This document shows positions 641 through 22,388 of a DNA stretch of 64,000 nucleotides, one piece after another. Location of the stretch: the sequence record NZ_CP031103.1. One strand, given 5' to 3'. The notes below the pieces were generated by a model that saw only the letters and a program-made list of their open reading frames with translations, was not told where the DNA came from and ran no database searches. The stretch comes from a plasmid. Each line of letters begins with the position of its first letter. Position 1 is the first letter of the stretch. The translations under genes and the position numbers were made by a program.

Positions 641-670
641 AAGTTACATTAGGCAAAGGTAAAACCAACC

Positions 671-1474: not shown

Positions 1475-1517
1475 GTGTTGTCTCTGCACCCCGCCGCACC
1501 CTTCCCCAGGCGGGGCA

Positions 1518-4465: not shown

Positions 4466-4767
4466 CCTAACGATTTTTCCTATCTATTAATCTGTAAACC
4501 AGAAACAAAAACAGGCACCGGTTCGGTCGCATATGAAGCGTACAATCGCCCCGTATTAATACCACAAAATCCCTGTTTGCTTTTTTTGCCCATTTTTAGC
4601 CATTTTATGGAATTTCAGTACCTTAAAATGTGGTGGCGACGTGAAGAGCTCCGCGACGCGAATTATTATTCAGTTTTTTTAGAGGAAAATAGGTTCTTTT
4701 GAGAGCCACTTACGGCTATCATGTCGTCTGGCTTATCAGCCTCATCTGACATCAAGGAGCAAAGAAG

Positions 4768-5720
4768 ATGAACGTTAAAAAAATTAAAGCAGCGGCAGAA
4801 CATCCTAACCCGGAATAGCCATTTATTGCGCTGGTAGCACTAGACGACGGCAGCGGCAACATCGCCTGTTCGTTCCATGACGCTGAAGGTGCCCTGTATG
4901 AAACCCACCAGCCCTCACTGATCGAGCAAGATGCCTCCGCCGGGTTCGGTTCCTCTCACATGAGCAACAGCGTCTGGGAAACCGCTTTACCGTGCGTCGT
5001 AACCCTACCAAACCACTGACTACCCTAGATCCGGCCTACCAACTCCGTTCTGGCCGTTGATACGATGTCTAAAGCGAATCTGGCGGTGTAGCGTGCGTGG
5101 TTGGCTGCACCCTGCCGGTGGAACAGTTCTATAACCGCGGCGACGCCTCGCAGCCGGTTAACCTGACCCGTATTCAGGCCAAAAAAGACAACCTCATGGG
5201 CGGCTGCACCAACGCGTACGGCGCGTATGAGCCCCCGGTCATCATGTCCGTTACCGTCTACCCGGAAGCCCTGCCAGCCTATTACTACTGCGCCACCCGT
5301 GAGGAAGGTAACCAGTCCTACCCGGAAGAGCATAAGACGCTGGTCGTTGACCTGGGCGAGTTTACCGCCGATTACGCCATCATCAGCACCGGCGACGAGA
5401 TCGTGGACTTCAGCACCCATGAACACGGCATTCACCTGATGGTTAGCCACTTCCGCACCCTGCTGGCGCGTGAACGTCACATTGAAGACGTGCAGTCGAT
5501 GCCAGACTCGGACGTGAAGGCCGTGATCAGCCGTGGTTACATCGGTTCCTCACTGGAAACCCCGCAGGCTATTGCCGCCCGTATCGACGTTTCTGATCTG
5601 GTTACAGAGGCTGCTGAATACCTTAACAACATGCTACAGGCCGATACCGCTGGTAAGGGCCTGCTGGTTACGCAGTGCGTAGCGGGCGGGATGTTGCTTA
5701 AAGAGTGTGGCGTACTGGAT
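4768..5720 (+). pseudogene. actin-like segregation ATPase (ParM/StbA/Alp superfamily), 5' portion; in-frame TAG at 4816-4818, frame changes between about 5028 and 5097, and truncated at 5720 by transposon insertion
   Basis: Phosphate-1 motif IALVALDDGSGNI (about 4830-4870) and phosphate-2 motif LVVDLGEFTADYAII (about 5340) at ParM-like spacing; gene continues at 21136 after the 15.4-kb insertion. Confidence 0.5.
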
Positions 5721-5741
5721 GGGCTCCGCTTGGAATTCGGA

Positions 5742-7067
5742 ATCTATGGTCACTCCCGTTTTTGCAACACCGATTTTGACGACAAGTTGGCTTGCTTGAA
5801 TCTATCCGGCGTCTGAATGGGATTTTATTCCCGCGCCTTGATGAGTTCCGCGCCTGATGAACCTCCAGAAAATATACGGCTTCAATGAGCCTTTCCGTTT
5901 TACAGGTTCCTCAACAGGCCGGTGGGCCGTTAGTATCATCAATATCAGTATTCGCAAAACCAGATCAGTAATTCTTTAAACCGGTGTATTTCTGCCGTTA
6001 TGCTACATAAGTTTGCTGTCGTGCCGTTAGGGCCCAGGCTATTCTGGCCAGCTTGTTTGCCAGAGCACAAGTGACGACAAAGTTGCTTTTCCGGCACAGT
6101 AAATCCCTGACCCAATCGGCCAATTTGCCAGACTGGTGTTCCAGTTTTTGTATGAATACCCTGGCACATTGAACCAACAAAGTTCGGATCTTTTTATTAC
6201 CTCGCTTACTAATTCCCAGCAATGTCGTCCTACCTCCCGTGCTGTACTGCCGAGGTACAAGCCCTGTTGCCGCCGCAAAGTCACGGCTGCTGGCGTACTG
6301 CTTCCCGTCGCCAATCTCAGTTGAAATAGTACTCGCTGTCAGTGTTCCGACGCAGGGAATGCTCAGCAAGCGCTGTCCAACCTCATCTTCGTCCAACTTT
6401 CGTTTCAACTGGGATTCCAAATCTTTAATCTGCTCAACAAGATAGTGATAATGCTGTTGTAATTTCAGCAATAACTGGCTGAGGTAAAGAGGCAAACTAT
6501 TATCCTCAAGAATGGTACTCAGTCGGCTAATAACGGCAGCTCCTCGGGAACGCTAATGCCAAATTCCAGCAGAAAAGCATGCATTTGATTGGTTGTTTTT
6601 ACCTTATCCTGAACCAGGGATTCACGGACACGATGCAGAGCCCGCATTGCCTGCTGAGATTCCGTTCTGGGCTGCACAAAACGCATAGACGGACGCGATG
6701 CAGCTTCACAAATAGCTTCGGCGTCGACAAAGTCGTTTTTATTGCTTTTAACGAACGGGCGGACAAATTGTGGTGATATCAGCTTTGGGGAATGCCCCAA
6801 CTCTTCCAACTTGCGTGCCATAAAGTGAGAACCGCCACAGGCTTCCATTGCGATGGTTGTAGCGGGCATGTCGCCAAAAATTCGATCAACTTTGGCCGGG
6901 TAAATTTTTTACGGTAAACAGCCTTCCCGCGACGATCCTGGCAATGAATATGGAAAGAGTTTTTACCCAGATCGATACCAATGAGCGCAATGTTTTCCAT
7001 GATAGTTCTCCGAATGAAAGCCTGTCCTCAGCATAGTACCGGGAAGGAGGGAGTGACCATCTCATTA
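5742..7067 (-). mobile_element. IS5075/IS4321-like (IS110 family, IS1111 group) copy 1 inserted in the tnpA-side IR; transposase split into 3 ORFs by two 1-bp C-homopolymer deletions relative to copies 2 and 3
   Basis: Near-identical to 19782-21109 and 56776-58103; CCCC to CCC differences at about 6860 and 6545. Confidence 0.85.
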
Positions 7068-7078
7068 AATATCCTACG

Positions 7079-10063
7079 CTAAGCCTGTTTTTTGTACAGG
7101 CTGCTATCCACTGAGCGTAATGTGCGGTATTTACCCTGCCCCAGCTTGAGGTTTGTTCGCCAGACGTAATCCCCGCTCAGATTTATGTGCTCCCATCCCA
7201 GTGGGGACAAATGCGCAATAAGTTGTTCATTTAGTGGGAGTCCTTTTCGCTTCAGAGAATCTATGGCTCTTTCCATATATACCGTATTCCACAGTGAGAT
7301 CGCCGCAGTCAGCAATGTCAGACCGCTGGCCCGGTAGCTTTGATTTTCCAGTCCCCGATCTCTGATTTCCCCCAGTCGGTGCATAAAGACAGCTCGCGCC
7401 AGGGCATTGCGGGCCTCACCTTTATTCAACCCTGCCTGTACCCGGCGGCGCAGTGAAGGATCCCGGAACCAGTCCAGCATAAATAATGACCTTTCGATGC
7501 GGCCAATCTCCCTCAGTGCCTTTGCCAGACCATTCTGTTTCGGGTAGCTGGCCAGCTTTTTCATCATCAGTGATGCCGTTACCGTTCCCTGCTTTATAGA
7601 ACTTGCCAGACGCAGTACCTCATGCCAGTGGGTTTCAATTTCCTTCAGACTCAGTCTGGTTGAGGATATGATTGACTGAAGCCCCGGATACAACTCAGCT
7701 TTCCCATGAATAAACAAGCGCTTGTCATGAAGATCCCGGATCCTTGGCGCAAAAGCGAATCCAAGCAGATGCATTAGCGCGAATACATGCTCAGTGAAGC
7801 CTGCTGTGTCGGTGTAATGCTCTGTAATTTCGAGATCGGTTTCGTGGTACAGCAGGCCATCAAGCACGTGTGTTGAGTCCCGCACGCGGCTGATTACTTT
7901 GATGTAAAACGGGCTGTATTGGTCCGAAATATGCGTATAAATCTGCACCCCTGGCTCCTGGCCGTATTTCAGATTGACCTGACCCGCATAACGCCCATGA
8001 CTCCCTACCCGAAAGTTCTGTCCGTCAGATGATGACGTTGTTCCATCGCCCCAGAATGCCGACAGAGGTCGCTTTTTCTGAGCATTGACCAACTCGGCCA
8101 GCGCGGCTGAATAAGTTTCATCCCTGATGTACCAGGCCTGAATGCCCTCAAGTGACGATTTTGTTGTTCCCGGACAGGATTCGGCCATTTTTGTCAGCCC
8201 AAGGTTGATGCCATCGGTCAGGATGGTGGTCAGTAACAACTTTCTGTCTTTAGGTCTGACGTGATTATTTTTGAGGTGGGTGAAATGGCGGGTAAAACCC
8301 GTCCAGCTATCCACTTCATCCAGCATTTCAGTAATTTTAGGATGAGGCAGCATGCCATACACCAGATCACCAAAAGGGGTTGCTGCTGAAGGGACACTGT
8401 TATCCAGCGGGGTAATTTTGACGCCTTTATCCGATATATCAACATCGGGCAAATCACCGGCCAGCGCCATCGCATTCACTTCCTCCAGGTGCGAAGCCAG
8501 AAGCGTCATACGGCTCCCAATGTATTCATGGCAATCGGTTGGAATAGCGAGGGGTAACTGGTTATCCCGGAGTGATTTTTCAAAATCGCCAGGCGGGATC
8601 AAATAATCATCGAAATTCCTGTAGCGACGAGATCCTTTCACCCAGATGTCACCTGAACGTAAAGCTCCCTTCAGCTCATTCAGCACACAAAATTCGTAAT
8701 ATTTTCGGTCAATGCCGTTGGACGTGATCACCACCTTTCTCCAGCTTTCCGGGATAAACCCGGTTGGCGCAGAAGACGGTACTTTTCGGAGTTGCTTTCG
8801 ATACATCTCTCTGACGGTATCCAGCGCATAACTAAGCTGCATTGCGGCGGGGGCAGCACTGAACTGCAACGCGGACAGCATCCGGGGAGCGTATTTGCGC
8901 AGCGTGCTGTATTTGTCTGTGATCAGATGCAACGGGTCGAAGTTGTCCTTACGTGACAGGAACCGTGTCTCTTCAACGCTGTTGATGAATTCCTGCCAGG
9001 GAAGGACGTCTTCTATTGCGGCCCAGGGATCTTCGCCAGATTCTCTGGCGTTAAGTAATGCCTGTCCGACGGTAACGTATTGCTTCAGCTTACTCTGAAT
9101 CAGTTTTCCCGTTTGCTGGAGTCGTTCGGCCTGCGTGCGTTTTGCCCTGCTGAACAGACTGCCCAAAATACGCTCATGCAGATCAATAACTTCGTCAGTC
9201 AGCGTGGCCCTGGCTTCCGATACGATACAAACCAGAGAGGCATAGCGGCGAACATCCGTGAATTTTGCCAAATCCCGGCTACTCATTTTCCTGCCTTCGC
9301 GTGCGAGTTTCAGGAGGCGGTTCTGGTGAACGGAAAGCGCAATACCGTCAGGCAATGCCAGTGACTCTATAGCATTTAACCGGTCGATATGTTGCAGGAC
9401 ATTTTTGCCATTAATTTTTCCCGGAGACTGAAGTAGCCAGGCCAGCCGTGAAGGTTGTTCGCCCTCAGAGATCAGCAGGCGATCCAGCGCAGCTTTTTGC
9501 CCCGGTTCAAGCTGTGCGGTCAGCGCAGAAAAAACCGCCCTGTCGGCAAGCGTAGTTGCTTCGGCAAGGGTTCGTTCGATGACCTCAACAGAGGGAAAAA
9601 TCACCTTATTATTGTGGAGCCATGAGAGCATTTCCTCTGCAAGTAGAAAACCTCTGTCTGTCCGCATGGCGTGGGGGTAAAGGTGGCGTATGCAGCTTTT
9701 TTGCAGTGCCCGATTGAACGGGCATAATTCCAGGTAGCGATAAAGTTCTGCCAGGTGTTCCCAACGGGTGACCTCTCTTGATGCATACTCGGTCCACAAA
9801 TCAGACTGAAGTTTCAAATGCATCGCCAGTCTGGAGACAACGCCATCGTGAGGTGAAATACTTTTGTCAGGGGGAAATCCCGGTCCCCGCAAGTAGCAGA
9901 GTAAAACAGCAAAGCCGAGGCGATTCGCTGGCCTGCGGTGTTTATTAATAAGCGCGAGGTCATGTTCACTCAAAAAACACATGCGGGTCAGAAGAACATC
10001 ATCATCCGGCACAACCAACAAGCGTTCTTTTTCTTCACTGCTGAGTATTTGTCTCCGTGGCAT
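7079..10063 (-). CDS. tnpA: Tn3-family transposase TnpA (about 994 aa; start at MPRRQILSS)
   Basis: Homology to second tnpA at 53792-56764 and Tn3-family conserved C-terminal region; stop codon lies within terminal IR. Confidence 0.9.
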   Translation of the reverse strand: MPRRQILSSEEKERLLVVPDDDVLLTRMCFLSEHDLALINKHRRPANRLGFAVLLCYLRGPGFPPDKSISPHDGVVSRLAMHLKLQSDLWTEYASREVTRWEHLAELYRYLELCPFNRALQKSCIRHLYPHAMRTDRGFLLAEEMLSWLHNNKVIFPSVEVIERTLAEATTLADRAVFSALTAQLEPGQKAALDRLLISEGEQPSRLAWLLQSPGKINGKNVLQHIDRLNAIESLALPDGIALSVHQNRLLKLAREGRKMSSRDLAKFTDVRRYASLVCIVSEARATLTDEVIDLHERILGSLFSRAKRTQAERLQQTGKLIQSKLKQYVTVGQALLNARESGEDPWAAIEDVLPWQEFINSVEETRFLSRKDNFDPLHLITDKYSTLRKYAPRMLSALQFSAAPAAMQLSYALDTVREMYRKQLRKVPSSAPTGFIPESWRKVVITSNGIDRKYYEFCVLNELKGALRSGDIWVKGSRRYRNFDDYLIPPGDFEKSLRDNQLPLAIPTDCHEYIGSRMTLLASHLEEVNAMALAGDLPDVDISDKGVKITPLDNSVPSAATPFGDLVYGMLPHPKITEMLDEVDSWTGFTRHFTHLKNNHVRPKDRKLLLTTILTDGINLGLTKMAESCPGTTKSSLEGIQAWYIRDETYSAALAELVNAQKKRPLSAFWGDGTTSSSDGQNFRVGSHGRYAGQVNLKYGQEPGVQIYTHISDQYSPFYIKVISRVRDSTHVLDGLLYHETDLEITEHYTDTAGFTEHVFALMHLLGFAFAPRIRDLHDKRLFIHGKAELYPGLQSIISSTRLSLKEIETHWHEVLRLASSIKQGTVTASLMMKKLASYPKQNGLAKALREIGRIERSLFMLDWFRDPSLRRRVQAGLNKGEARNALARAVFMHRLGEIRDRGLENQSYRASGLTLLTAAISLWNTVYMERAIDSLKRKGLPLNEQLIAHLSPLGWEHINLSGDYVWRTNLKLGQGKYRTLRSVDSSLYKKQA

Positions 10064-10221
10064 AAATGCTTCCTCTGCACATAGTTCATTAAAGTTATCA
10101 TTTGCACTGACCGAAACCGGTCGGTTTCGTACGCCTCGCAAACAATATGTCCGAAAGTCAGCGAAATTTGTTTCGTACATACGTTATAATTCGGACATCC
10201 ATTTCGTACGGAAAGTTTCCT
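10064..10221. promoter_or_regulatory. res site / divergent tnpA-tnpR promoter region with repeated TTTCGTAC(G) motifs
   Basis: Intergenic between divergent tnpA and serine resolvase; repeated tttcgtac motifs and palindromes seen. Confidence 0.5.
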
Positions 10222-10800
10222 ATGTCACGAGTTTTTGCTTACTGCCGGGTTTCGACTCTTGAGCAAACCACCGAGAATCAGCGAAGGGAAATTGAAGCGG
10301 CGGGTTTTGCCATCAGACCCCAGCGGCTGATTGAGGAACATATAAGTGGTTCGGTTGCTGCCAGCGAACGACCAGGGTTCATCCGGTTGCTTGATCGTAT
10401 GGAAAGCGGTGACGTATTGATTGTCACCAAACTTGACCGACTCGGCCGTAATGCGATGGATATCCGAAAAACAGTTGAACAACTGGCTACTTTAGATATC
10501 CGTGTTCATTGTCTCGCTCTCGGAGGTGTGGATTTAACCAGCCCGGCCGGAAAAATGACTATGCAGGTGATTTCAGCTGTGGCTGAGTTTGAGAGGGATC
10601 TGCTGATTGAACGCACACATTCAGGGATTTCTCGGGCAAGATCAGCCGGGAAACGCTTCGGTCGTCCGCCCATCCTGAGCGAGGAGCAAAAAAAAATAGT
10701 GTCAGAGCGCCTTAATTCCGGGGCCAGTATCAGTGCGGTTGCCAGAGAATTTAATACCACCCGGCAAACCATACTCCGGGTAAAAGCAGGACAGCAATAA
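10222..10800 (+). CDS. tnpR: serine recombinase / resolvase TnpR
   Basis: YCRVST catalytic serine motif near N-terminus, C-terminal HTH. Confidence 0.9.
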
Positions 10801-10900
10801 TACTGAATGTGAATAAATCCCATAACTGGCCAGGCCGTTGAAACTGTTCTTGAAGTAAACATCCGGAAAGCATGAAACATCATTCTGTCCACAAGGAACA

Positions 10901-10950
10901 GTGGCTATTATAATCGAATTTCGATAACGAAATTCGATTATAATAGCCAC
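10901..10950. repeat. near-perfect 50-bp palindrome (23-bp arms gtggctattataatcgaatttcg, 4-bp spacer) 26 bp upstream of chrA
   Basis: Seen in sequence. Confidence 0.8.
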
Positions 10951-10975
10951 TAAAACCAGCAATCAGGATCTGACC

Positions 10976-12181
10976 ATGAACGATACTGCCAGGAATGATC
11001 ACAGCCCCTGGGCTGTCTTTCTGATTTTCTTCCGACTTGGCCTGACATCCTTCGGCGGCCCAATTGCCCATCTGGGTTACTTCCGCGATGAGTTTGTGAC
11101 GCGACGGCAGTGGTTGACCGAGCGCAGCTATGCAGATTTGGTCGCTCTGTGCCAGTTCCTTCCGGGACCAGCAAGCAGTCAGGTTGGTATAGCGCTCGGG
11201 CTGTCCAGGGCCGGTTATACCGGGGCGCTGGCAGCATGGGCCGGCTTCACGCTACCGTCAGCAGTTGCACTGATCCTGTTTGCACTGGGGATGACCGGTT
11301 ACGGGGATGTGATGCCCTCTGGTGTATTGCATGGGCTGAAGGTGGTAGCCGTTGCGGTGGTCGCGCAAGCTGTATGGGGCATGGCCCGAAATCTTTGCCC
11401 GGATATACCGCGTATTACTGTCATGGCAGTGGCAACCTGCTTTGTGCTTCTTGTGCCATCGGCCTGGGGACAGGTGGGAGTGATCATCACTGCGGCTGTC
11501 ACTGGCATGTTACTGTTCAAACCTCAGCAGGCGACGGTACATGATCCACTGCCCGTTTCAATACGGCGTCGCGTCGGATTGTTCTGGCTCACGCTGTTCT
11601 TTGTGCTACTGACAGGGTTACCATTGCTGACGGCGATATTCCCAAATCCGACGCTGTTAATGGTAGAAACTTTCTACCGGACCGGATCACTGGTTTTTGG
11701 TGGCGGGCATGTCGTGCTGCCATTGCTGCAAACTGAAGTCGTTCCTTCTGGTTGGGTCAGCAATGATACATTCCTGGCTGGCTACGGCGCTGCCCAGGCC
11801 GTTCCTGGACCGTTGTTCACTTTTGCAGCCTTTCTCGGGGCTTCGATGAACCAGGTGCCTTCTGGCTGGCTGGGTGGTCTGGTTTGTCTGCTGGCAATTT
11901 TCGCACCGTCCTTCCTTCTGATTGTGGGAGCATTGCCGTTCTGGGAAAGTCTGCGCCGCAATATCCGCACACAAGCAGCGTTGCAGGGTATTAATGCAGC
12001 CGTAGTTGGCCTTCTGCTGGCTGCTCTCTATCAACCAGTATGGACGAGCGCAGTTCTCGCTCCGCAAGATTTCGGCCTTGCCCTTGTGGCACTGGTCGCT
12101 CTGATGTTCTGGAAACTGCCGCCGTGGCTGGTCGTAATGAGTTGCGGTGTTGCGGGTTGGTTGTTGAGTTTAGCACTGTGA
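10976..12181 (+). CDS. chrA: chromate efflux transporter ChrA
   Basis: CHR family two-domain membrane protein, typical N-terminus FFRLGLTSFGGP. Confidence 0.9.
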   Translation: MNDTARNDHSPWAVFLIFFRLGLTSFGGPIAHLGYFRDEFVTRRQWLTERSYADLVALCQFLPGPASSQVGIALGLSRAGYTGALAAWAGFTLPSAVALILFALGMTGYGDVMPSGVLHGLKVVAVAVVAQAVWGMARNLCPDIPRITVMAVATCFVLLVPSAWGQVGVIITAAVTGMLLFKPQQATVHDPLPVSIRRRVGLFWLTLFFVLLTGLPLLTAIFPNPTLLMVETFYRTGSLVFGGGHVVLPLLQTEVVPSGWVSNDTFLAGYGAAQAVPGPLFTFAAFLGASMNQVPSGWLGGLVCLLAIFAPSFLLIVGALPFWESLRRNIRTQAALQGINAAVVGLLLAALYQPVWTSAVLAPQDFGLALVALVALMFWKLPPWLVVMSCGVAGWLLSLAL

Positions 12182-12191
12182 GGTTCCGGGC

Positions 12192-12497
12192 GTGACCGAC
12201 AAAGATCTTTACGGCGGGATGATCCGTTTGCACATCCTGCATCATGCAGCCAAAGAACCCGTCTTTGGTCTGGGCATCATTGAGGAATTGCGACACCACG
12301 GTTATCAACTCAGCCCGGGTACCCTGTATCCGATGCTGCACGGTATGGAAAAGAAGGGGTATCTCACTTCACGACATGTTCAGGCCGGTCGACGAAGCAG
12401 GCGAGTATATGAAATCACCGGACAAGGGAACATAGCGCTAACGGACGCCAGAAACAGGGTGAAAGAGCTGTTCGGTGAACTTGTTGAAGGCAAATGA
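12192..12497 (+). CDS. PadR-family transcriptional regulator
   Basis: PadR winged-helix signature (GYxLSPGTLYPxLxxME). Confidence 0.8.
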   Translation: MTDKDLYGGMIRLHILHHAAKEPVFGLGIIEELRHHGYQLSPGTLYPMLHGMEKKGYLTSRHVQAGRRSRRVYEITGQGNIALTDARNRVKELFGELVEGK

Positions 12498-12620
12498 TAT
12501 GCCTATGGTTTTAGTCTGCCGTCTTCTGAAAACGACAGACACATGTAAGATTATCCGCTGCCTGGCAGAAGGAGACTTTGTGAAAACGCTCATGGTGTGT
12601 ATTTATACGATCAGAAGGCG

Positions 12621-13319
12621 TTATATTTTTTCCTGATTGACGCGGGACGAAAGTTCCTGATGACTCTCTTTTCGTTCGCTGTAGCGATCTGCAAGGTAGC
12701 TGGTTTGTCCCCTGAGCAGCAACGTAATTTTAAACAACTCCTCTGCGACATCTACGATACGGTCGTACCATGAGGACGGCTTCATCCTTCCGTTCTCATC
12801 AAATTCCTGCCAGGCTTTCGCCACCGAGGACTGGTTGGGAATTGTGAACATCCGCATCCAGCGGCCCAGAATGCGCATCTGGTTCACGGCATTGAAAGAC
12901 TGTGAACCGCCGCAAACCTGCATCACTGCAAGAGTCTTGCCCTGCGAAGGACGAACCGCGCCTTCACTCAACGGTATCCAGTCGATCTGCGCCTTCATCA
13001 CCGCGCTCATAGCCCCGTGCCGTTCCGGCGAGCTCCACACCATCCCGTCACACCATCTGACCAGCCCGCGTAGCTCGGAGACTTTAGGGTGCGTATCCGG
13101 GGCATCATCCGGCAGGGGTAAACCGGAGGGGTTAAAGAATTTCACCTCCGCGCCCATCGCCGTCAGCAGGCGACCTGCTTCCTCCGCGGCAAAGCGACTG
13201 TAGGAGCGCTCCCTTACTGAGCCATACAGGATCAGAATCCGTGGGGGCTCCTGCAGGTGCAGACGTTCAGCGATATGTTGATCAAAACAGTCAGTATTCA
13301 GGGCTGGAAATTGTTCCAT
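12621..13319 (-). CDS. arsH: ArsH NADPH-dependent FMN reductase
   Basis: Sequence family recognition; divergent from arsR as usual. Confidence 0.85.
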
Positions 13320-13404
13320 TTTTCTCCTCCGGAGAGAACAGATGATTTCAAATTTAACACATATGATTTAACATATGTGTATTCTAAAGTGAACGGAGTG
13401 AAAA

Positions 13405-13725
13405 ATGCTACAACCTGTTCAGCTTTTCAAAATCCTGTCGGATGAAACACGACTAGCCATCGTCATGCTTCTCCGGGAGTCCGGAGAATTGTGCGTCTGC
13501 GATATCTGCGTTGCTACCTCCGAATCGCAGCCCAAAATCTCCCGACATATGGCTATCCTTCGCGAGGCTGATCTGGTTCTTGACCGTCGGGAAGGCAAAT
13601 GGATCCACTATCGTCTGTCACCCCATATTCCGGCGTGGGCAGCAGAGACAATCACGACGACCTGGCAGTGTCTGCGCGAGGATGTACGTGAATGGCTGGA
13701 CAAATCAGCCTGCACCTCCTGCTGA
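13405..13725 (+). CDS. arsR: ArsR arsenite-responsive repressor
   Basis: ELCVCDL metal-binding motif, HTH. Confidence 0.85.
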
Positions 13726-13769
13726 GGCAGGAAAACATATTTACAAAATCATATATGATGGGGTATGAG

Positions 13770-15059
13770 ATGCTTTTGGCAGGGAGTATATTTTTACTGA
13801 CGCTGGTACTGGTGATCTGGCAACCCAGAGGCCTGAGTATTGGCTGGAGCGCGAGTATCGGGGCAGTGCTGGCGCTGGGAACCGGTGTCATCCATACCGC
13901 TGATATTCCCGTTGTCTGGAATATCGTCTGGAACGCGACAGCGGCATTTATTGCGGTCATCATCATCAGCCTGCTGCTCGATGAGTCCGGCTTCTTTGAA
14001 TGGGCCGCACTGCACGTCTCCCGCTGGGGTAACGGACGTGGCCGCCTGCTGTTCACCTGGATAGTCTTGCTCGGTGCCGCTGTTGCTGCTTTGTTCGCCA
14101 ATGATGGCGCCGCGCTGATCCTGACGCCGATTGTGATTGCGATGCTGCTCGCACTGGGGTTCAGCCAGGGCACGACACTGGCCTTTGTCATGGCTGCAGG
14201 ATTTATTGCAGATACGGCCAGCCTGCCACTCATTGTTTCTAACCTGGTGAATATCGTCTCGGCGGACTTCTTCGATCTGGGCTTTACACAGTACGCCTCC
14301 GTTATGATCCCCGTGGATGCGGCAGCGATTGCGGCCACGCTGATCATGCTGCATCTCTTCTTCCGCAGGGATATTCCGGCAACATATGACGTTTCGCTAC
14401 TGAAGACGCCTGCCAGTGTGATAAAGGATCCGGCAACGTTCAGGGCGGGCTGGATTGTCCTGTTATTGCTGCTTGTCGGTTTCTTCGTTCTGGAGCCGCT
14501 GGGGATCCCTGTCAGCGCGATAGCAGCTGCTGGCGCAGCAGTACTGTTTATCGTGGCGAAAAGAGGTCATGGCATCAACACAGGGAAAGTCCTGCGCAGT
14601 GCGCCATGGCAGATCGTGATTTTTTCGCTGGGCATGTACCTGGTGGTCTATGGCCTGCGCAATGCCGGGCTCACGGAGTATCTGTCTGGTGTACTGAACC
14701 TGCTGGCAGAAAAGGGGTTATGGGCAGCAACGTTCGGCACCGGTTTCCTGACCGCATTCCTGTCGTCGGTGATGAACAATATGCCGACGGTGCTGATTGG
14801 TGCGCTGTCGATTGACGGGAGTACGGCGACTGGCGTCGTCAAAGAGGCAATGATTTATGCCAACGTGATTGGCTGCGATTTAGGCCCGAAAATCACCCCG
14901 ATTGGCAGTCTGGCAACCCTGCTTTGGCTGCATGTGCTTGCCCAGAAAAATATAACGATCACCTGGGGTTATTACTTCCGCACCGGCATTATCATGACTC
15001 TGCCCGTGCTGTTTGTCACTCTGGCCGCGCTGGCGTTGCGGCTTTCCATCACTTTGTAA
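13770..15059 (+). CDS. arsB: ArsB arsenite efflux pump (429 aa; start [10 protein letters not shown])
   Basis: Family recognition. Confidence 0.9.
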
Positions 15060-15071
15060 TGAGATAAAGAT

Positions 15072-15500
15072 ATGAGCAACATTACTATCTATCACAACCC
15101 GGCCTGCGGTACTTCACGCAACACGCTGGAGATGATCCGTAACAGCGGTAACGAACCGACCATTATTTATTATCTCGATACGCCACCGACCCGTGATGAG
15201 CTGATTAAACTTATTTCAGATATGGGAATTACGGTGCGTGCATTGCTGCGTAAGAATGTTGAGCCTTATGAACACCTGGGCCTTGATGAAGAGAAATTCA
15301 GTGATGAGCAGTTGATTGATTTTATGCTTCAACATCCGATCCTGATTAATCGGCCGGTAGTCGTTACGCCGCTGGGAACGCGCCTGTGTCGCCCGTCGGA
15401 AATTGTGCTGGAAATTCTTGCGGATAAGCAAAAAGGGGCTTTCACTAAAGAAGATGGCGAGAAAGTAGTGGATAGTCGCGGTAAACGAATCATTAAGTAA
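15072..15500 (+). CDS. arsC: ArsC arsenate reductase (glutaredoxin-dependent)
   Basis: N-terminal HNPACGTSR motif. Confidence 0.9.
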   Translation: MSNITIYHNPACGTSRNTLEMIRNSGNEPTIIYYLDTPPTRDELIKLISDMGITVRALLRKNVEPYEHLGLDEEKFSDEQLIDFMLQHPILINRPVVVTPLGTRLCRPSEIVLEILADKQKGAFTKEDGEKVVDSRGKRIIK

Positions 15501-15542
15501 AACTGTCAGACACCCCTGCCCGAAGGCAGGGGGAACTTATCG

Positions 15543-15686
15543 TTAATGGCAATGACCACCCTCATGTGAGCCATGAACATAATCGTGAATATACCCATTA
15601 TGGGTATATTCACCATGATATGCCCACGCGGCCATGGTTGTGCCTCCCAGCAGAACCACGAGCATAACTGCAATGACTTTCTTCAT
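15543..15686 (-). CDS. 47-aa secreted His-rich peptide (MKKVIAVMLVVLLGGTTMAAWAYHGEYTHNGYIHDYVHGSHEGGHCH), not in ORF track
   Basis: Strong RBS aaggagatata 7 nt upstream of ATG; signal peptide then 8 His + 1 Cys in 25 residues; immediately downstream of P1B-ATPase. Confidence 0.4.
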   Translation of the reverse strand: MKKVIAVMLVVLLGGTTMAAWAYHGEYTHNGYIHDYVHGSHEGGHCH

Positions 15687-15723
15687 TATATCTCCTTGAA
15701 AATGAATAATTTTACTGCTTACC

Positions 15724-18366
15724 TTACCGTCTGAAACGTAAAAGTCTCAGACTGTTAAGAATGACCAGCACAGCGGCTCCCGTATCGCTCAGCACCGCCA
15801 TCCAGAGCGTTAACCAGCCCGGGAAGATCAGCGTCAGCGCGACGACCTTGACCAGTAACGAGAACACAATGTTCTGGCGGATGATCCGGGCCGTCAGTTT
15901 GCTCAGGGCAAAGGCGTGAGGCAGCTGTTCCAGACGGTCTGACATCAGCACCACATCGGCGGTTTCGATGGCTGAATCCGTGCCCGCTCCGCCCATCGCA
16001 ATACCGATATCGGCGGCAGCCAGCGCCGGCGCATCGTTGATGCCATCGCCCACCATGGCGATACGGATCCCTTTCTGTTGAAACGCCTCAATGGCCGCCA
16101 CCTTATCTTCCGGCAGCAAGTCGGCCCGCCAGGACTCTACGCCCGCCTGAGCGGCAATGGTACGGGCGGTACCGGCATTATCACCCGTCAGCATCAGGGT
16201 ATGTGTCAGGCCATCCGCGTGAAGCTCCTTCAGGGCATCAACGGTCGTTTTACGCAGCGCATCCGCAATGGCGAACAGACCATAAACGCCCATATTCGTT
16301 CCGAGCAGTACCACCGTCGCACCGCTCTCCTTGAGCAAATCAATCTGGCCCTGGATCTCTGGAGCAATCGCAATCTCGCGGAACAGCTTTTCATTACCTG
16401 CTAACCATGTTTCGCCCCCGACGACGGCGCGGGCACCCTGGCCCGGCAGGGTCTGGTACTCGCTGGCCTCTGCTGCCTGCGCATTATGCTGACGCGCATA
16501 ATCACTGATCGCCGTGGCCAGCGGGTGCGTTGAGTGGGACTCAACCGCCAGGGCGATAGCTAACAGGTTCTCGCTGCTTGCCCCGGAAAACGTCTGCCAC
16601 TGCGTGACCCGGGGTTTGCCCTCCGTCAGGGTACCGGTTTTATCGAAAGCCAGGCCCTGAATGGCACCCAGCTTTTCAAGGGTTACGCCCCCCTTAACCA
16701 GGATGCCGTGACGGGCTGCGTTACCAATTGCCGAGACGATGGCCACCGGCGTAGAAATCACCAGTGCACAAGGACAGGCCACAACCAGCAGTTCCAGCGC
16801 GCGGTAAAACCACTCCGCAAAACTTCCCCAGCCCACCACTGGCGGCACGATGCTGACCACCAGTGCCAGAATGAACACTATCGGGGTGTAAATCGCAGAG
16901 AATTTTTCCACGAAACTCTGGGTAGGCGATTTACGGTTCTGCGCCTCTTCTACCATATGGATGATGCGTGACAGGGCAGTCTCTGTAGAGGCTCTCGTCA
17001 CCTCAACTTCCAGCACGCCGTTATGGTTAATACTTCCGGCATACACGTCATCCCCTGGTGCCTTATCAACCGGAATAGACTCGCCGGTGATCGGTGCCTG
17101 GTTAACGCCGGATTCCCCCTTAATCACCCTACCGTCAAGAGGTAAACGATCGGCGGGTTTGATCAGCATGGTGGTGCCTTTGCGCACGTCGCCAACGGGG
17201 ACACTCACCCACTGATTATCCTTGCGGATTGTGGCTGTTTCAGGTGCCAGCGCCATCAGGCTTCTGATGGAGTTGCGGGTTTTTTCAATACTTCTGGCCT
17301 GCAGCGTGGCCCCCAGAGAGAAGAGGAACACGACGCTGGCCCCTTCAAGCCACTCGCCGATAATGGCCGCGCCAATGGCGGCTGCGGACATGAGCACGTT
17401 CATGTCCAGCGATTTGCTGAGTATGGCGTACCAGGCGCTGCGGGCAGGCCTGATGCCCCCGGCAACGATGGAAAGCGCATAGCAGAGCGTGGACAGATAG
17501 TCAGGGAAGGAGAGCCAGGAAAGAACAAACCCGGTCACCAGCGCCACGCCCGATACCACCACGTTCAGCGTTCCGGTACCGCTGCGTTTTTTGCTACTGA
17601 TGCCCGCGCCAGTGGGTTGTGCCTTGTAGCCGGCTTTAGCCACTTCACTCTGAATGACATCCTGCGACAGGGTATGACTAATCGCCATCTTGCCGGTGGA
17701 GAAGTTGACGGATACCTGACTGACGCCCGGCAGTTTACCGAGGTGTTTCTCGATGGTTGCCGCGCATGCGCCACAGTCCATCCCTTCGATAAAGTACTCT
17801 TCTGTGCCTGAAGCGGTCATGGCATCAAGTGTAAAACCGAGTTTCATCACCGCCTTTTCGATTTCCGGCTGGCTGGCGGCTTCACTGGCATGAACCTGCA
17901 TTTTCCCGGCGCTGAAATTGACGTTGCACTCCGCTACCCCGTTAAGCTGCCGTACACGTCGCACGATAGTTTCCGCACATGAAGGGCAGTCCATACCGCC
18001 AACGAGATAGTCGAGCGTCCGGGTACCTGCGATATCCGCTCGCGCGTTCAGCGGGGCGGTTTCAACGGGATCGGCCCCGCAGCAGGGATCCTGACACGCC
18101 GACGGCGTTAGGGGCTTCATTACGGTTGCGGAGGTAAGTGTAAAGGGTTTAACGGCGGCTTCTCCTTTGAAGGTCAGTTCGGCTTTATCTGCTTTCTGAA
18201 GGGCCGGTGTACAGCAGCTCTCATGACAGGTTTCTGCCTGGACCGGTAAGGGTTCTTTTTCAGCAACTGGTTTATTGGGCGTTACCGGAGAAAAGCCCTT
18301 GAAGGTGCGCGTGTTGTCTGGCCGGGAGCAGGAACCCGTTGCGCAGCATGATGATTTTTCGCTCAT
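15724..18366 (-). CDS. P1B-type heavy-metal (Zn/Cd/Pb-type) translocating ATPase with Cys-rich N-terminus and two CxxC metal-binding domains
   Basis: GMDCPSCA and GMDCGACA HMA motifs, CPC transmembrane motif, DKTGTLT phosphorylation motif. Confidence 0.85.
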   Translation of the reverse strand: MSEKSSCCATGSCSRPDNTRTFKGFSPVTPNKPVAEKEPLPVQAETCHESCCTPALQKADKAELTFKGEAAVKPFTLTSATVMKPLTPSACQDPCCGADPVETAPLNARADIAGTRTLDYLVGGMDCPSCAETIVRRVRQLNGVAECNVNFSAGKMQVHASEAASQPEIEKAVMKLGFTLDAMTASGTEEYFIEGMDCGACAATIEKHLGKLPGVSQVSVNFSTGKMAISHTLSQDVIQSEVAKAGYKAQPTGAGISSKKRSGTGTLNVVVSGVALVTGFVLSWLSFPDYLSTLCYALSIVAGGIRPARSAWYAILSKSLDMNVLMSAAAIGAAIIGEWLEGASVVFLFSLGATLQARSIEKTRNSIRSLMALAPETATIRKDNQWVSVPVGDVRKGTTMLIKPADRLPLDGRVIKGESGVNQAPITGESIPVDKAPGDDVYAGSINHNGVLEVEVTRASTETALSRIIHMVEEAQNRKSPTQSFVEKFSAIYTPIVFILALVVSIVPPVVGWGSFAEWFYRALELLVVACPCALVISTPVAIVSAIGNAARHGILVKGGVTLEKLGAIQGLAFDKTGTLTEGKPRVTQWQTFSGASSENLLAIALAVESHSTHPLATAISDYARQHNAQAAEASEYQTLPGQGARAVVGGETWLAGNEKLFREIAIAPEIQGQIDLLKESGATVVLLGTNMGVYGLFAIADALRKTTVDALKELHADGLTHTLMLTGDNAGTARTIAAQAGVESWRADLLPEDKVAAIEAFQQKGIRIAMVGDGINDAPALAAADIGIAMGGAGTDSAIETADVVLMSDRLEQLPHAFALSKLTARIIRQNIVFSLLVKVVALTLIFPGWLTLWMAVLSDTGAAVLVILNSLRLLRFRR

Positions 18367-18716
18367 TGGGCAGGATCTCCAAGCAGGCGACTGTTCATAC
18401 CGCAGCAGTGAACCTCTTCGCCCACTTCAACCATCAGGGTATCAAGCATGACCAGAAAGGCTTCCATATGCGGGCCTGACAGGCCGTAGTAGCAAAACTT
18501 CCCTTCCTGTCGTTTGGTTATCATCCCGCATCCCTTAAGGCAGGCGAGATGCTGGGAAACACCGGACTGAGATGCACCGATCTCATTCACGATATCGGAT
18601 ACCGTTTTCTCTCCGCTACGCAGCGAAATGAGGATACTCAGACGGGTCTTTTCCGATACACCGCGCAGGAATTTGATTTTGTCGTCAAGGGTTGCAGCCA
18701 CTACACACTCCAACAT
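18363..18716 (-). CDS. ArsR/SmtB-family metalloregulator (CadC/ZntR-like)
   Basis: HTH plus Cys-containing metal sites; translationally coupled upstream of ATPase. Confidence 0.8.
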   Translation of the reverse strand: MLECVVAATLDDKIKFLRGVSEKTRLSILISLRSGEKTVSDIVNEIGASQSGVSQHLACLKGCGMITKRQEGKFCYYGLSGPHMEAFLVMLDTLMVEVGEEVHCCGMNSRLLGDPAQ

Positions 18717-18914
18717 ATTAATATTCGCTAATGCGCAATATATTAATCCACGCTAATATAATGTCAATTGGCCCGTGCGATTTTGATATAGATAAAAGGT
18801 ATATCAATGGGTTGCATAAAAAACGCTCCCGTTAATGTCGCGGGTCATTGTCTGCACAGAGCGCATCAGGGTCATCTGAAGGCTCATTGTTAAACGGTCA
18901 ATAAGGATTATTTT

Positions 18915-19550
18915 ATGAAGAAAGGAGTTATCGTGGGTATCTTTCTGCTTGTGCTGGGTGTGGCGGCGTTCAGTCTCTGGTTCACCACGAAACCAGCAGA
19001 AGGTAACCGGGACAGTTTTGTGGCCAGCCATTCCCCGGTGCTGGGGGTCATTAATGCACCGGTAACCATTGTCGAATTTTTTGATCCGGCCTGTGAGGCA
19101 TGTGCGGCTATGTCACCCTATGTTAAAGAGACCCTGGCCACTCATCCGGAGGGCGTCAGACTGGTTCTGCGTTATGCCCCTTTCCACGGTGACGTTTCCG
19201 TCGAGGCTATCGAAATTCTTGAAGCGGCCCGTGAACAACGGCTTTTTGAACGTGTACTGACCGCGTTTTTCCGCAATCATCCATCCTGGGCGGGTCACGG
19301 TTTTTCACCCGAGAAAGGTAAGGCTACCCTCTGGAAAATTGCTCTGGCGTCAGGACTTAATGAGCAGCGGGCCAGAGCTTACATCGCCGGAAATAAAACG
19401 AAGAAAGTGATTGCGGAGGATCTGAAACAGATCAAGGAGCTTAATATCCAGGGCACGCCAACATTCTATGTGAATGGTAAAAAACTGATCGACCTGGGCC
19501 CCGAGCAGCTGGATCAGATGGTGTCAGCGGCGCTGAAAGAGAGCAAATAA
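18915..19550 (+). CDS. DsbA-like thiol:disulfide oxidoreductase (signal-anchored, CEAC active site)
   Basis: Thioredoxin fold CxxC motif FDPACEAC. Confidence 0.75.
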   Translation: MKKGVIVGIFLLVLGVAAFSLWFTTKPAEGNRDSFVASHSPVLGVINAPVTIVEFFDPACEACAAMSPYVKETLATHPEGVRLVLRYAPFHGDVSVEAIEILEAAREQRLFERVLTAFFRNHPSWAGHGFSPEKGKATLWKIALASGLNEQRARAYIAGNKTKKVIAEDLKQIKELNIQGTPTFYVNGKKLIDLGPEQLDQMVSAALKESK

Positions 19551-19574
19551 TCTCGTTTATTGCCCGAGGTATCC

Positions 19575-19612
19575 GAACAACAAGTCGCCTGAAAGGCGAC
19601 TTGTTGTGTTTA
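19575..19612 (+). terminator. rho-independent terminator (aacaacaagtcgcc tgaaa ggcgacttgttgtg + T-rich)
   Basis: Hairpin seen in sequence. Confidence 0.7.
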
Positions 19613-19781
19613 ACATTGAAAAGTATGTTGGCCACATGAAATGATGGTTAGTCGCGTTGACAGGAATTAACGTAGCCTGCCCATACCTTAAACCTGTGTT
19701 TTCGCCTTAGGCTTAATGTCCGCAGTTCACTCATAGTTGCCCATCATGCCAGCTCAAAAAACAGGCTTAACGTAGGATATT

Positions 19782-21109
19782 TAATGAGATGGTCACTCCC
19801 TCCTTCCCGGTACTATGCTGAGGACAGGCTTTCATTCGGAGAACTATCATGGAAAACATTGCGCTCATTGGTATCGATCTGGGTAAAAACTCTTTCCATA
19901 TTCATTGCCAGGATCGTCGCGGGAAGGCTGTTTACCGTAAAAAATTTACCCGGCCAAAGTTGATCGAATTTTTGGCGACATGCCCCGCTACAACCATCGC
20001 AATGGAAGCCTGTGGCGGTTCTCACTTTATGGCACGCAAGTTGGAAGAGTTGGGGCATTCCCCAAAGCTGATATCACCACAATTTGTCCGCCCGTTCGTT
20101 AAAAGCAATAAAAACGACTTTGTCGACGCCGAAGCTATTTGTGAAGCTGCATCGCGTCCGTCTATGCGTTTTGTGCAGCCCAGAACGGAATCTCAGCAGG
20201 CAATGCGGGCTCTGCATCGTGTCCGTGAATCCCTGGTTCAGGATAAGGTAAAAACAACCAATCAAATGCATGCTTTTCTGCTGGAATTTGGCATTAGCGT
20301 TCCCCGAGGAGCTGCCGTTATTAGCCGACTGAGTACCATTCTTGAGGATAATAGTTTGCCTCTTTACCTCAGCCAGTTATTGCTGAAATTACAACAGCAT
20401 TATCACTATCTTGTTGAGCAGATTAAAGATTTGGAATCCCAGTTGAAACGAAAGTTGGACGAAGATGAGGTTGGACAGCGCTTGCTGAGCATTCCCTGCG
20501 TCGGAACACTGACAGCGAGTACTATTTCAACTGAGATTGGCGACGGGAAGCAGTACGCCAGCAGCCGTGACTTTGCGGCGGCAACAGGGCTTGTACCTCG
20601 GCAGTACAGCACGGGAGGTAGGACGACATTGCTGGGAATTAGTAAGCGAGGTAATAAAAAGATCCGAACTTTGTTGGTTCAATGTGCCAGGGTATTCATA
20701 CAAAAACTGGAACACCAGTCTGGCAAATTGGCCGATTGGGTCAGGGATTTACTGTGCCGGAAAAGCAACTTTGTCGTCACTTGTGCTCTGGCAAACAAGC
20801 TGGCCAGAATAGCCTGGGCCCTAACGGCACGACAGCAAACTTATGTAGCATAACGGCAGAAATACACCGGTTTAAAGAATTACTGATCTGGTTTTGCGAA
20901 TACTGATATTGATGATACTAACGGCCCACCGGCCTGTTGAGGAACCTGTAAAACGGAAAGGCTCATTGAAGCCGTATATTTTCTGGAGGTTCATCAGGCG
21001 CGGAACTCATCAAGGCGCGGGAATAAAATCCCATTCAGACGCCGGATAGATTCAAGCAAGCCAACTTGTCGTCAAAATCGGTGTTGCAAAAACGGGAGTG
21101 ACCATAGAT
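19782..21109 (+). mobile_element. IS5075/IS4321-like copy 2 (intact 334-aa transposase 19849-20853) inserted in right IR of metal transposon
   Basis: Identical insertion point relative to IR as copies 1 and 3. Confidence 0.9.
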
Positions 21110-21135
21110 TCCGTTTTCCAAGCGGACCCCTGGAT

Positions 21136-21266
21136 ACGCTCATCATGCTGGATCAGCACCCTGCGTATCTGGCCGGTACGCCATCGGTGCGTCGAAACAT
21201 CCTGATCAATGAGTTGCTGGCCCTGCTGGGTCAGCCGTCCACCAGCCAGAAAGTGACGTGGTAACA
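21136..21266 (+). pseudogene. 3' remainder of the actin-like ATPase gene interrupted by the transposon (reads ...DTLIMLDQHPAYLAGTPSVRRNILINELLALLGQPSTSQKVTW*)
   Basis: Frame continuous with 5097-5720 ORF once the transposon and one TSD copy are removed. Confidence 0.55.
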
Positions 21267-21704
21267 GCGAAACCTGTTACGCCGGTTGTAGAGGAAGTAC
21301 CGGTGCAACACGCACCTCAGACCGTGCAGACGCCACCAACGGAAACGAAGCAAACTCCTGCGCACAGACCAGCCCTGCCGAAAATGGGCCAGTAACCGAT
21401 CCGCCAGCATAAATAAGGCTCCTTTTGGGGCCTTATTTTTGAAATTTAGAGGGGAAAACTTCACTTTTGACACCGATGGAGCATAGGTTTGACGCGCTTT
21501 TTGACACAAAAGCTGAAGAAATCAGCAGTCGATCAAATTTTCATTTTTTTTTCTGAAATATTGACATGACATCCAAGCCTTACGGTACGGGCACTTGCGA
21601 TTTTTTATTGCTTGACAACCTCAATTTAACCTCAAAATCAACTCTTGTTCAGGAAATAAACTCCTTTAGAATAATCACTGTCAGTCATAGAGTTAGAAAG
21701 ACCA

Positions 21705-21734
21705 GACGCAAAAAACCCGACTGGTAAGGTCGGG
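21705..21734 (-). terminator. minus-strand rho-independent terminator (cccgacc ttacca gtcggg + TTTTTTG)
   Basis: Seen in sequence; no protein gene ends here, so candidate antisense sRNA terminator. Confidence 0.45.
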
Positions 21735-22009
21735 TCTTTGCGGTTCCGGATGAGCTGGTAACTCAACCGGGGGGTACTCTCTTTAGCTGACAGGAAAAAT
21801 GATACGCGAATATTTTGGTCGCGGCAAACGACGTTTAGATACAAAACACACCAAAAGCCCTGGCTTTGTAGAACGGGTGGTACCGCGATACAAAGTGCTC
21901 TCATAGGTTGGAGTGCTCTCTTTAGCTGACACGTAAGAGAAAAAAACCGATGTAACAGGCCATTTGGAGTAGACGTCGGTGCTCTCCCTCCGCATCGTTG
22001 GAGGTACGT

Positions 22010-22105
22010 ATGATTAGTAAATTAATCATCGTTCTGAAAGGCCTGATCGTCGTTGCAAAACTGGCGCTCGAGCTTTTAGAACAAATCAGTAAGTTTTTTG
22101 ACTGA
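22010..22105 (+). CDS. 31-aa hydrophobic peptide MISKLIIVLKGLIVVAKLALELLEQISKFFD, DinQ/TisB-like type I toxin candidate
   Basis: GGAGG RBS 5 nt upstream; similarity of pattern to DinQ (MIDKAIIVLGALIALLELIRFLLQLLN); strong terminator follows. Confidence 0.5.
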   Translation: MISKLIIVLKGLIVVAKLALELLEQISKFFD

Positions 22106-22111
22106 TACGAA

Positions 22112-22142
22112 AACAAAAGGCGCCTTCGGGCGCCTTTCTTAT
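22112..22142. terminator. bidirectional rho-independent terminator (aaaaggcgcc ttcg ggcgcctttctt)
   Basis: GC hairpin with T-runs on both strands; ends the small ORF (+) and the 22146-22379 gene (-). Confidence 0.75.
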
Positions 22143-22145
22143 TGG

Positions 22146-22379
22146 TTAATGTGCCGGTTCCGGCGGGCTCTCCGCCTTTTTCAGCACGTCCTCCACCCGT
22201 CCACGATATTGCAGCAACAAGCCCAGCGTCGCGTCATCCAGCGCGATAGAGTCACCCGCATCGGTGCGTATCCAGACCTGGTAGCCGTCGAACCGGGCAT
22301 ACACTCCATCATGAATGTAGGTTTCCTGCGACGGATCAAACGGCGTACTCCACGGGAAGAGCGGTATTTCCTGTTCCAT
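22146..22379 (-). CDS. hypothetical protein (77 aa)
   Basis: ORF only. Confidence 0.4.
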   Translation of the reverse strand: MEQEIPLFPWSTPFDPSQETYIHDGVYARFDGYQVWIRTDAGDSIALDDATLGLLLQYRGRVEDVLKKAESPPEPAH

Positions 22380-22388
22380 CTTCTCTCC

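Follow-up and report, generated by a model that had tools for sequence, protein, structure and literature searches.

A chromate, arsenic and cadmium-type Tn3-family transposon with IS4321 in both ends and an inverted interior on a phage-like plasmid

The ARI-A island of IncC plasmids, which derives from Tn1696, and the transposons Tn6256/Tn6317 are members of the Tn21 subgroup of the Tn3 family in which both outermost terminal repeats are split by the insertion sequence (IS) IS4321 or IS5075. ARI-A keeps its 5-bp target-site duplication, and interruption of both ends has been described as locking this island and similar transposons in place (PMC7652850, PMC5034289). IS4321 and IS5075 belong to the IS1111 group of the IS110 family; they are 1327 bp long, have 12-bp subterminal inverted repeats with 7-nt and 3-nt extensions, encode a DEDD transposase and enter Tn21-type repeats at a single position and in a single orientation without making a duplication (PMC5001619, PMC8269217). 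Here we describe a related arrangement in 64,000 nucleotides of plasmid record NZ_CP031103.1, the whole of which is called the window below. A 15,410-bp chr/ars/cad transposon (5721-21130) has an IS4321-type element in each of its 38-bp ends, and its interior is inverted relative to IS-free copies found at the same site in other assemblies. It shares with ARI-A and Tn6256/Tn6317 the subgroup and the occupation of both outermost repeats. Unlike them, it carries chromate, arsenic and Cd/Zn/Pb determinants and no integron, resides on a phage-like plasmid and has divergent tnpA and tnpR genes; no inversion of the interior has been reported for them in the literature searched.

We consider it highly probable that one transposition, entry of IS4321 into both ends and inversion of the interior by recombination between the IS copies together account for this locus. 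A 12.76-kb Tn3-family unit transposon with Tn21-like 38-bp ends and the original order tnpA, res, tnpR, chrA, padR, arsH, arsRBC, a 47-aa open reading frame (ORF), cadA-like, cadC-like and dsbA-like would have transposed once into the phage-like plasmid, creating a TGGAT duplication. It would have landed at codon 54 of a small gene that follows parM and occupies the place of ParR within a decaying par locus. IS4321 would later have entered both terminal repeats in its standard position and orientation; the replicon carries three identical copies of it. Recombination between the inverted 1.3-kb IS copies would finally have flipped the interior, leaving the outer 22-bp halves of the repeats in place while the inner 16-bp halves swapped sides. 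The proposed order is empty site, transposition, IS insertion in both ends and inversion.

The transposition is recorded in the flanks. TGGAT borders the element on both sides (5716-5720 and 21131-21135): the left junction runs from ...GGCGTAC through TGGAT and GGGCTCCGCTTGGAATTCGGAA into an IS, and the right junction leaves the other IS through TTCCGTTTTCCAAGCGGACCCC and TGGAT into ACGCTC.... When window 4521-5720 was joined to 21136-22335 and searched against PLSDB, the rebuilt 2.4-kb junction was found, in full length and at 95% identity, in pM17-63 (NZ_CP102376.1), a plasmid of Leclercia adecarboxylata. The plasmid reads GAGTGTGGCGTACTGGATACGCTCATCATG across this junction, an uninterrupted site (GTACTGGATACGCTC) that contains TGGAT once. 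Since an empty site with a single TGGAT exists in pM17-63, the duplication cannot be put down to chance, and the locus shows both the 5-bp duplication and the matching empty site that mark a Tn3-family insertion. With the IS copies removed, the termini are 38-bp repeats, GGGCTCCGCTTGGAATTCGGAA plus AATATCCTACGCTAAG and GGGGTCCGCTTGGAAAACGGAA plus AATATCCTACGTTAAG, that match at 34 of 38 positions. They are of Tn21-like form (about 38 bp, starting with GGGG and ending with ACGYTAAG), and they are uninterrupted both in the IS-free contigs and in a cad-only relative, L016, considered below. Each is split 22/16 by a 1.3-kb IS in the window. On the left the outer 22 bp (GGGCTCCGCTTGGAATTCGGAA, 5721-5742, plus strand) are parted from an inner 16 bp (AATATCCTACGCTAAG, 7068-7083, plus strand), and on the right an inner 16 bp (AATATCCTACGTTAAG, 19766-19781, plus strand) from the outer 22 bp (reverse complement GGGGTCCGCTTGGAAAACGGAA, 21109-21130, minus strand). 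An earlier sequence-only reading of the window had placed the duplication, the repeat halves and the split sites at exactly these positions. Its single clean transposition with TGGAT duplication is borne out by public data, which hold both the empty site and an IS-free occupied site. Looking up the exact sequence of the transposon's metal-transporting ATPase in public assemblies recovered the composite chr/ars/cad transposon at one site only, and we infer one past transposition event of this element.

The same lookup returned five contigs in which the transposon is free of IS copies: L017 (NCBI GCA_032074645.1), L018 (JGI 3300011723), L019 and L021 (Logan runs) and L022 (ENA). In all five, window 1-5742 is immediately followed by the reverse complement of 7067-19782. 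L017 and L018 extend further, through window 21109-22452, and L019, L021 and L022 stop within the transposon. TGGAT is present as in the window and the 38-bp repeats are whole, the cargo (dsbA) end on the parM side reading GGGCTCCGCTTGGAATTCGGAAAATATCCTACGTTAAG and the tnpA end GGGGTCCGCTTGGAAAACGGAAAATATCCTACGCTAAG. Across the entire 12,716-bp interior the window differs from L017 at 3 positions and from L018 at 1, and the backbones are >99.9% identical. Relative to these contigs the window interior (7068-19781) is inverted, while the outer 22-bp halves lie on the same flanks in both forms. The left outer half, which is contiguous with AATATCCTACGTTAAG in the IS-free contigs and originally belonged to the cargo end, now faces the inner half of the tnpA end across the IS; the inner half of the cargo end likewise faces the outer half that came from the tnpA end. 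Judged against these contigs, the left and right ends as rebuilt in the sequence-only reading appear to be chimeras, and the inversion appears to have been overlooked there. A flipped interior between fixed outer halves is best explained as the signature of recombination between inverted IS copies. Three further contigs, L020, L023 and L024, break off within the IS, which shows that other samples too contain IS-occupied copies.

Two other histories could be imagined for the pair of arrangements. In the lineage of the window, a separate insertion of the same transposon might have taken place at this TGGAT in the opposite orientation, an idea for which that orientation speaks and nothing further. 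Such an insertion would have brought each whole 38-bp repeat along, yet both forms have GGGCTCCGCTTGGAATTCGGAA on the side of parM, the halves that have changed places are the inner ones alone, the duplication is the same and the backbones agree to the extent given above. This candidate was rejected because the outer repeat halves have not moved, and we regard it as next to impossible. Alternatively, the IS-free contigs might descend from an IS-occupied ancestor through precise excision of both copies, given that IS4321 and IS5075 readily form circles (PMC5001619). These circles leave no deletion junctions (PMC5001619), which implies that the donor copy is kept, and for this reason the IS-free state is taken as ancestral. 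Excision would moreover call for two precise events plus an inversion, and the IS-free form occurs in five separate datasets, all of which makes this history far-fetched.

A more serious challenge concerns the inversion itself, and several points weigh against it. It rests on one assembly, that of the window, set against short-read contigs unable to span IS-occupied ends. The segment lies between perfect 1.3-kb inverted repeats, and inverted repeats flanking a segment are a classic origin of assembly orientation errors. The window is also short of several C-run bases compared with the other assemblies, which suggests an error-prone long-read consensus; homopolymer indels of this kind are typical of uncorrected long reads. 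The segment could have been misoriented, the true molecule having IS4321 in both ends and the orientation of L017, or the two orientations could coexist in a mixed population. Yet the assembly of a 64-kb contig across three identical 1.3-kb repeats would have required reads that bridge the repeats, and recombination between such repeats is expected in living cells. We judge an artefact or a coexisting second orientation to be unlikely, while keeping it in view, and prefer inversion by recombination between the two IS copies.

The agent of that recombination may be considered separately. Programmable inversion by IS110 bridge-RNA recombinases has been shown in the laboratory, and the DEDD recombinase of IS4321 with its guide RNA might have catalysed the inversion on the two occupied repeats in place of RecA-dependent recombination. 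We think this improbable here. If true, it would provide a natural example of programmable inversion, and IS-occupied Tn21-type transposons would be invertible cassettes. Homologous recombination between the IS copies remains the presumed cause.

The IS copies themselves conform closely to what has been described. The left copy (5743-7067, minus strand, 1325 bp) and the right copy (19782-21108, plus strand, 1327 bp) lie in inverted orientation and differ only in that the left copy has lost one base in each of two CCCC runs, which breaks its transposase gene; these losses may be sequencing errors and the broken gene an artefact. In the right copy the DEDD transposase gene is intact (19849-20853, 334 aa) and is followed by a 255-nt non-coding region. 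The transposase matches PF01548 and PF02371, the DEDD (IS110-type) domains, and the IS has 12-bp subterminal inverted repeats, its ends being ATGGTCACTCCC and GGGAGTGACCAT. An identical third copy (56776-58102) sits inside a mercury transposon elsewhere in the window. Compared with copies annotated in other records, the three agree at every position with the IS4321-annotated copies in L002 and L003 and differ from the IS5075-annotated copies in L025 at 87 positions (93.4% identity), and on this comparison we assign them to the IS4321 type. Where the sequence-only reading had repeat-targeting, IS5075-like members of the IS1111 group, the group and the standard site in both ends hold, but the type is IS4321. 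Its further claim that both repeats are split at one identical internal position also holds: the split falls between CGGAA and AATAT, with one ambiguous T that is also discussed in PMC5001619. Insertion gained or lost no bases, as the intact repeats of L017 show, and made no duplication. All three copies have the inner repeat half at their left and the outer half at their right, so that their orientation relative to the repeat is identical. Nothing essential distinguishes them from known IS4321 and IS5075 insertions, apart from the two 1-bp deletions of the left copy and a target in which one of the occupied repeats reads GAATTCGGAA in place of GAAAACGGAA. Split in this way, the ends should no longer support TnpA-mediated movement of the chr/ars/cad transposon.

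Such precise targeting could be RNA-guided. A seekRNA design has been shown experimentally for other IS1111-family members (PMC11187229), and the DEDD transposase of IS4321 may likewise be guided by RNA from the non-coding region downstream of its gene. A candidate target-recognition loop lies at 20950-20983 (plus strand), where AAAACGGAAA (20950-20959) and ATATTTTC (20976-20983) flank a small hairpin and, in the predicted fold of the 255-nt region 3' of the transposase gene, occupy the internal loop around it. The 10-nt AAAACGGAAA matches one strand of the terminal repeat and the 8-nt ATATTTTC the other, both matches cross the insertion point, and both lengths were reached together in 2 of 20,000 shuffles. 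On the other side, the fold of the non-coding region is no stabler than that of shuffled sequence (z = -0.63), and an Rfam scan of the IS returned only a chance snoRNA match (E = 0.8). With the repeat variant GAATTCGGAA, 6 nt of the 10-nt guide match are left; this variant is occupied in the chr/ars/cad transposon and unoccupied in the mercury transposon. The guide-like segments fit the seekRNA design, and RNA-guided targeting by IS4321 appears plausible on this basis.

Identity between the two ends of the transposon continues for 11-12 bp (CAAAAAACAGGC) beyond the 38-bp repeat. In the sequence-only reading this stretch, translated as a tnpA-like tail (QLKKQA and a stop), had pointed to a second related element at the right end. 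The chr/ars-only, cad-only and composite forms all have this extension at their cargo end. A second element was rejected since the extension is common to all transposon variants examined (n = 3); the 11-12 bp are a feature of the termini in this transposon group and provide no evidence for a second element.

The identity of the target gene became apparent from pM17-63, whose sequence carries the coordinate label L001. The insertion point corresponds to codon 54 of a 142-aa gene (L001 7378-7806) that overlaps the stop codon of parM (L001 6557-7381). Missing from the window are 314 bp present in pM17-63 (L001 7155-7468), comprising the 3' end of parM and the first 30 codons of the 142-aa gene, and the two genes are fused in frame at window 5646/5647. 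Because this deletion joined the parM remnant to the 142-aa gene, a single continuous "ParM-like" ORF runs across the transposon junction. The remnant of parM, an actin-like segregation ATPase pseudogene delimited by alignment to pM17-63 and L022, occupies 4768-5646 (plus strand). It is followed in frame by codons 31-54 of the target gene (5647-5720, plus strand), and the 3' part of the latter resumes beyond the transposon (21136-21395, plus strand), where a 4-bp deletion relative to pM17-63 produces an early stop at 21264-21266. Insertion had been placed inside a ParM-like gene whose joined ORF would encode one known protein; the continuity across the junction is real, but the insertion point lies in a separate gene downstream of parM and the ORF is a fusion.

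Taken as a whole, the model of an insertion in a ParM gene, with IS5075-like elements in both ends, no rearrangement and a right end from a second element, is very improbable. Its duplication, repeat halves and continuous ORF are real, and the cargo is indeed a mosaic. It fails on the insertion point, which lies in another gene fused to parM by the 314-bp deletion, and on the interior, whose orientation is opposite to that of five IS-free copies at this site, with the outer halves unmoved. The tnpA-like 11-12 bp are common to the cargo ends of chr/ars-only, cad-only and composite transposons, and the IS is identical to IS4321-annotated and not to IS5075-annotated copies. One transposition followed by IS4321 insertion and inversion remains the account that we favour.

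The decay of the par locus is not confined to the window. In the window and in L017, parM is interrupted by a TAG stop and has lost 13, 14 and 1 bp in separate deletions, and in pM17-63 and L022 it has a different 1-bp frameshift. Since pM17-63 parM is frameshifted too and this plasmid has no transposon, decay is found on a transposon-free relative as well. When repaired, pM17-63 parM matches StbA_N (5.8e-14) and MreB-like_C. Positions 1-1685 of L022 (ENA ERZ28645903), compared with window 4087-5742, show the same transposon, site and 314-bp deletion; the 5' half of parM is pM17-63-like there, without the TAG stop and the 13-bp and 14-bp deletions, so the extra parM lesions arose, or recombined in, after insertion. 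The 142-aa gene is a putative ParR adaptor by virtue of its position, overlapping the parM stop codon. Its product has no Pfam match and only six relatives, all hypothetical. An AlphaFold model shows a helical core and a disordered tail at low confidence (mean predicted local distance difference test score 57.5), and a Foldseek search of this model against PDB returned nothing below E = 7. No repeated units of parC type were found in window 4300-4800, upstream of parM, and the window has a ParA-like partition gene as well. Downstream of the disrupted locus, a non-coding stretch at 21771-21986 holds GTGCTCTCTTTAGCTGACA twice, 139 bp apart, and AGTGCTCTC three times. These repeats are conserved in pM17-63 and may form a protein-binding or centromere-like array.

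The host replicon shares about 15 kb of window backbone with pM17-63. Phage-like genes are present, including terminase-like, helicase, integrase and VRR-NUC genes and a P7 C1-repressor domain, and pM17-63 has genes for RepB, a MipZ/ParA-type ATPase, an amidase and an HNH endonuclease. Capsid and tail genes are missing from the annotation, a megablast comparison of both backbone flanks with 50,697 phage records returned nothing, and the exact 20-mer of the target site is absent from IMG/VR. The label of phage-plasmid given to it earlier finds some backing in the coexistence of phage-like and plasmid genes, but the lack of annotated capsid and tail genes and of phage or viral matches speaks against it; the replicon might, at most tentatively, be called a phage-plasmid. 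Small differences between assemblies were seen in the backbone. A C is missing beside a G run at window position 6 relative to other assemblies, and a long C run near 591 has one C more than in L017. In window 3436-3480, L018 shows 12 substitutions within 45 bp against an otherwise 99.9% identical backbone, a cluster that looks like a short recombination or gene-conversion patch.

Within the transposon, gene content and the TnpA profile match confirm a Tn3-family element with chr, ars and cad genes, as had been proposed. The DDE transposase gene tnpA (7079-10063, minus strand; 994 aa) is intact, its start codon was checked, and the product scores 1184 bits against NF033527, for which the cut-off is 500. 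It is separated from the divergent tnpR by 158 bp (10064-10221) that contain three TTTCGTAC motifs and presumably serve as res. The tnpR gene (10222-10800, plus strand; 192 aa) encodes an intact serine resolvase with serine-recombinase matches, and the near-identical L017 gene matches Pfam Resolvase and HTH_7. Next come the chromate efflux gene chrA (10976-12181, plus strand; TIGR00937, 343 bits) and a PadR-family regulator gene (12192-12497, plus strand; PF03551). The arsenic block, identified by profile matches, consists of arsH (12621-13319, minus strand) and, on the plus strand, arsR (13405-13725), arsB (13770-15059, start checked) and arsC (15072-15500). Directly upstream of chrA, at 10900-10951, lies a perfect inverted repeat of 24 bp, its arms (AGTGGCTATTATAATCGAATTTCG / CGAAATTCGATTATAATAGCCACT) 4 bp apart, which has one base different in the chr/ars-only transposon L002 and is probably an operator or terminator.

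The cad module begins with an ORF (15543-15686, minus strand) whose 47-aa, His-rich product has a signal-like N-terminus (MKKVIAVMLVVLLGGTTMAAWAYHGEYTHNGYIHDYVHGSHEGGHCH). This ORF was called in L016-L024, and is thus also present in the cad-only transposon L016; the peptide matches nothing in Pfam and may bind metal in the periplasm. The cadA-like gene (15724-18366, minus strand) encodes an 880-aa P1B ATPase with two HMA domains, recognized by profile (TIGR01512, 530 bits against a cut-off of 313.5; TIGR01525, 617 bits) and by the motifs GMDCPSC, GMDCGAC and CPC. It is overlapped by a cadC-like gene for an ArsR/SmtB-family regulator (18363-18716, minus strand; NF033788). The two would form an operon resembling cadCA for efflux of Cd/Zn/Pb type, the metal specificities being suggested by homology. 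A DsbA-like thioredoxin-fold protein with a membrane anchor or signal sequence, found by profile search, is encoded at 18915-19550 (plus strand).

No PLSDB record covers at least 80% of the 15.4-kb element, and literature searches found no published name for the chr/ars or the chr/ars/cad transposon. Its left part belongs to a common type. Chr/ars transposons (e.g. NZ_CP062917.1, NZ_CP042507.1 and CP042500.1), frequent in plasmids of Klebsiella, Enterobacter, Raoultella and Leclercia, share the order tnpA, tnpR, chrA, padR, arsH, arsRBC, are about 96% identical to window 5719-15465 and have the same terminal repeats, both of which are occupied by IS4321 or IS5075 in L002, L003 and L025. They differ in having 104 bp where the window has the 4.3-kb cad module, and the L002 and L003 copies lack a target duplication. 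The right part resembles the cad-only transposon L016 (Logan SRR19882623_61, a conjugative-plasmid contig), which has tnpA, tnpR, the 47-aa ORF, cadA, cadC and dsbA, a cad module 92% identical to ours, intact 38-bp repeats of the same type and a 5-bp duplication, AACGT. In L016, unlike in the window, 77 bp stand in place of the 4.7-kb chr/ars block, tnpA and tnpR are 89.6% identical to the window genes and no IS is present. Neither the 72,556 PLSDB plasmids nor 5,426 complete E. coli genomes contain a close match to the module (15466-19745). The nearest distinct relative of the ATPase, P0001, is encoded in the L016 transposon and is 95% identical; Pantoea and Enterobacter proteins follow at 65-67% and then CadA of Bacillota at 50-56%, the nearest named relatives. 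In a scan of species-representative genomes with the ATPase, one Enterobacterales genome reached 67% and the remainder at most 44%. On these comparisons the element is a mosaic of a common chr/ars-type left part and a rare cad-type right part. Exchange at res was rejected as a sufficient origin of this composite cargo on its own: res lies between tnpA and tnpR with both cargo blocks on the same side, so an exchange there cannot join the two.

Further metal-related elements occur on the replicon. A second Tn21-subgroup transposon at window 48785-58124 carries merR, merT through merA, tnpR and tnpA. Its tnpA-end repeat is split by the third IS4321 copy, its mer-end repeat (48785-48822, with GAATTCGGAA) is unoccupied, and its flanks read TATGA and TACAC, so that it lacks a target duplication. 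The first mer transport gene has four perfect tandem copies of a 15-bp unit (GTCTGAACCACAAAA) at its 5' end (window 49347-49406), which would encode a repeated SEPQK motif at the N-terminus of the transport protein. A heavy-metal two-component system of CusS/SilS and CusR/SilR type (TIGR01386, TIGR01387) lies at 61387-63470 on the minus strand.

The chr/ars/cad transposon is an ordinary kind of nested mobile element with an unusually well documented history, and it leaves the understanding of the mechanisms involved unchanged. The additions to the initial description are the gene actually hit, the assignment of the IS to IS4321, the mosaic make-up of the cargo, the presence of a rare cadCA-type module and a documented series of states of the locus. 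One element combines chromate, arsenic and Cd/Zn/Pb determinants, the last in a module that is rare and resembles those of Gram-positive bacteria, and the replicon adds a mercury transposon and a Cu/Ag-type two-component sensor. For annotation, the locus carries a warning: where IS4321 or IS5075 occupies both ends of a transposon, the outer and inner halves of a repeat may be non-cognate. Three successive states of one locus, empty, occupied by a transposon with intact ends, and IS-split and flipped, are present in public data, and this series provides direct evidence for an order of events that is usually only inferred.

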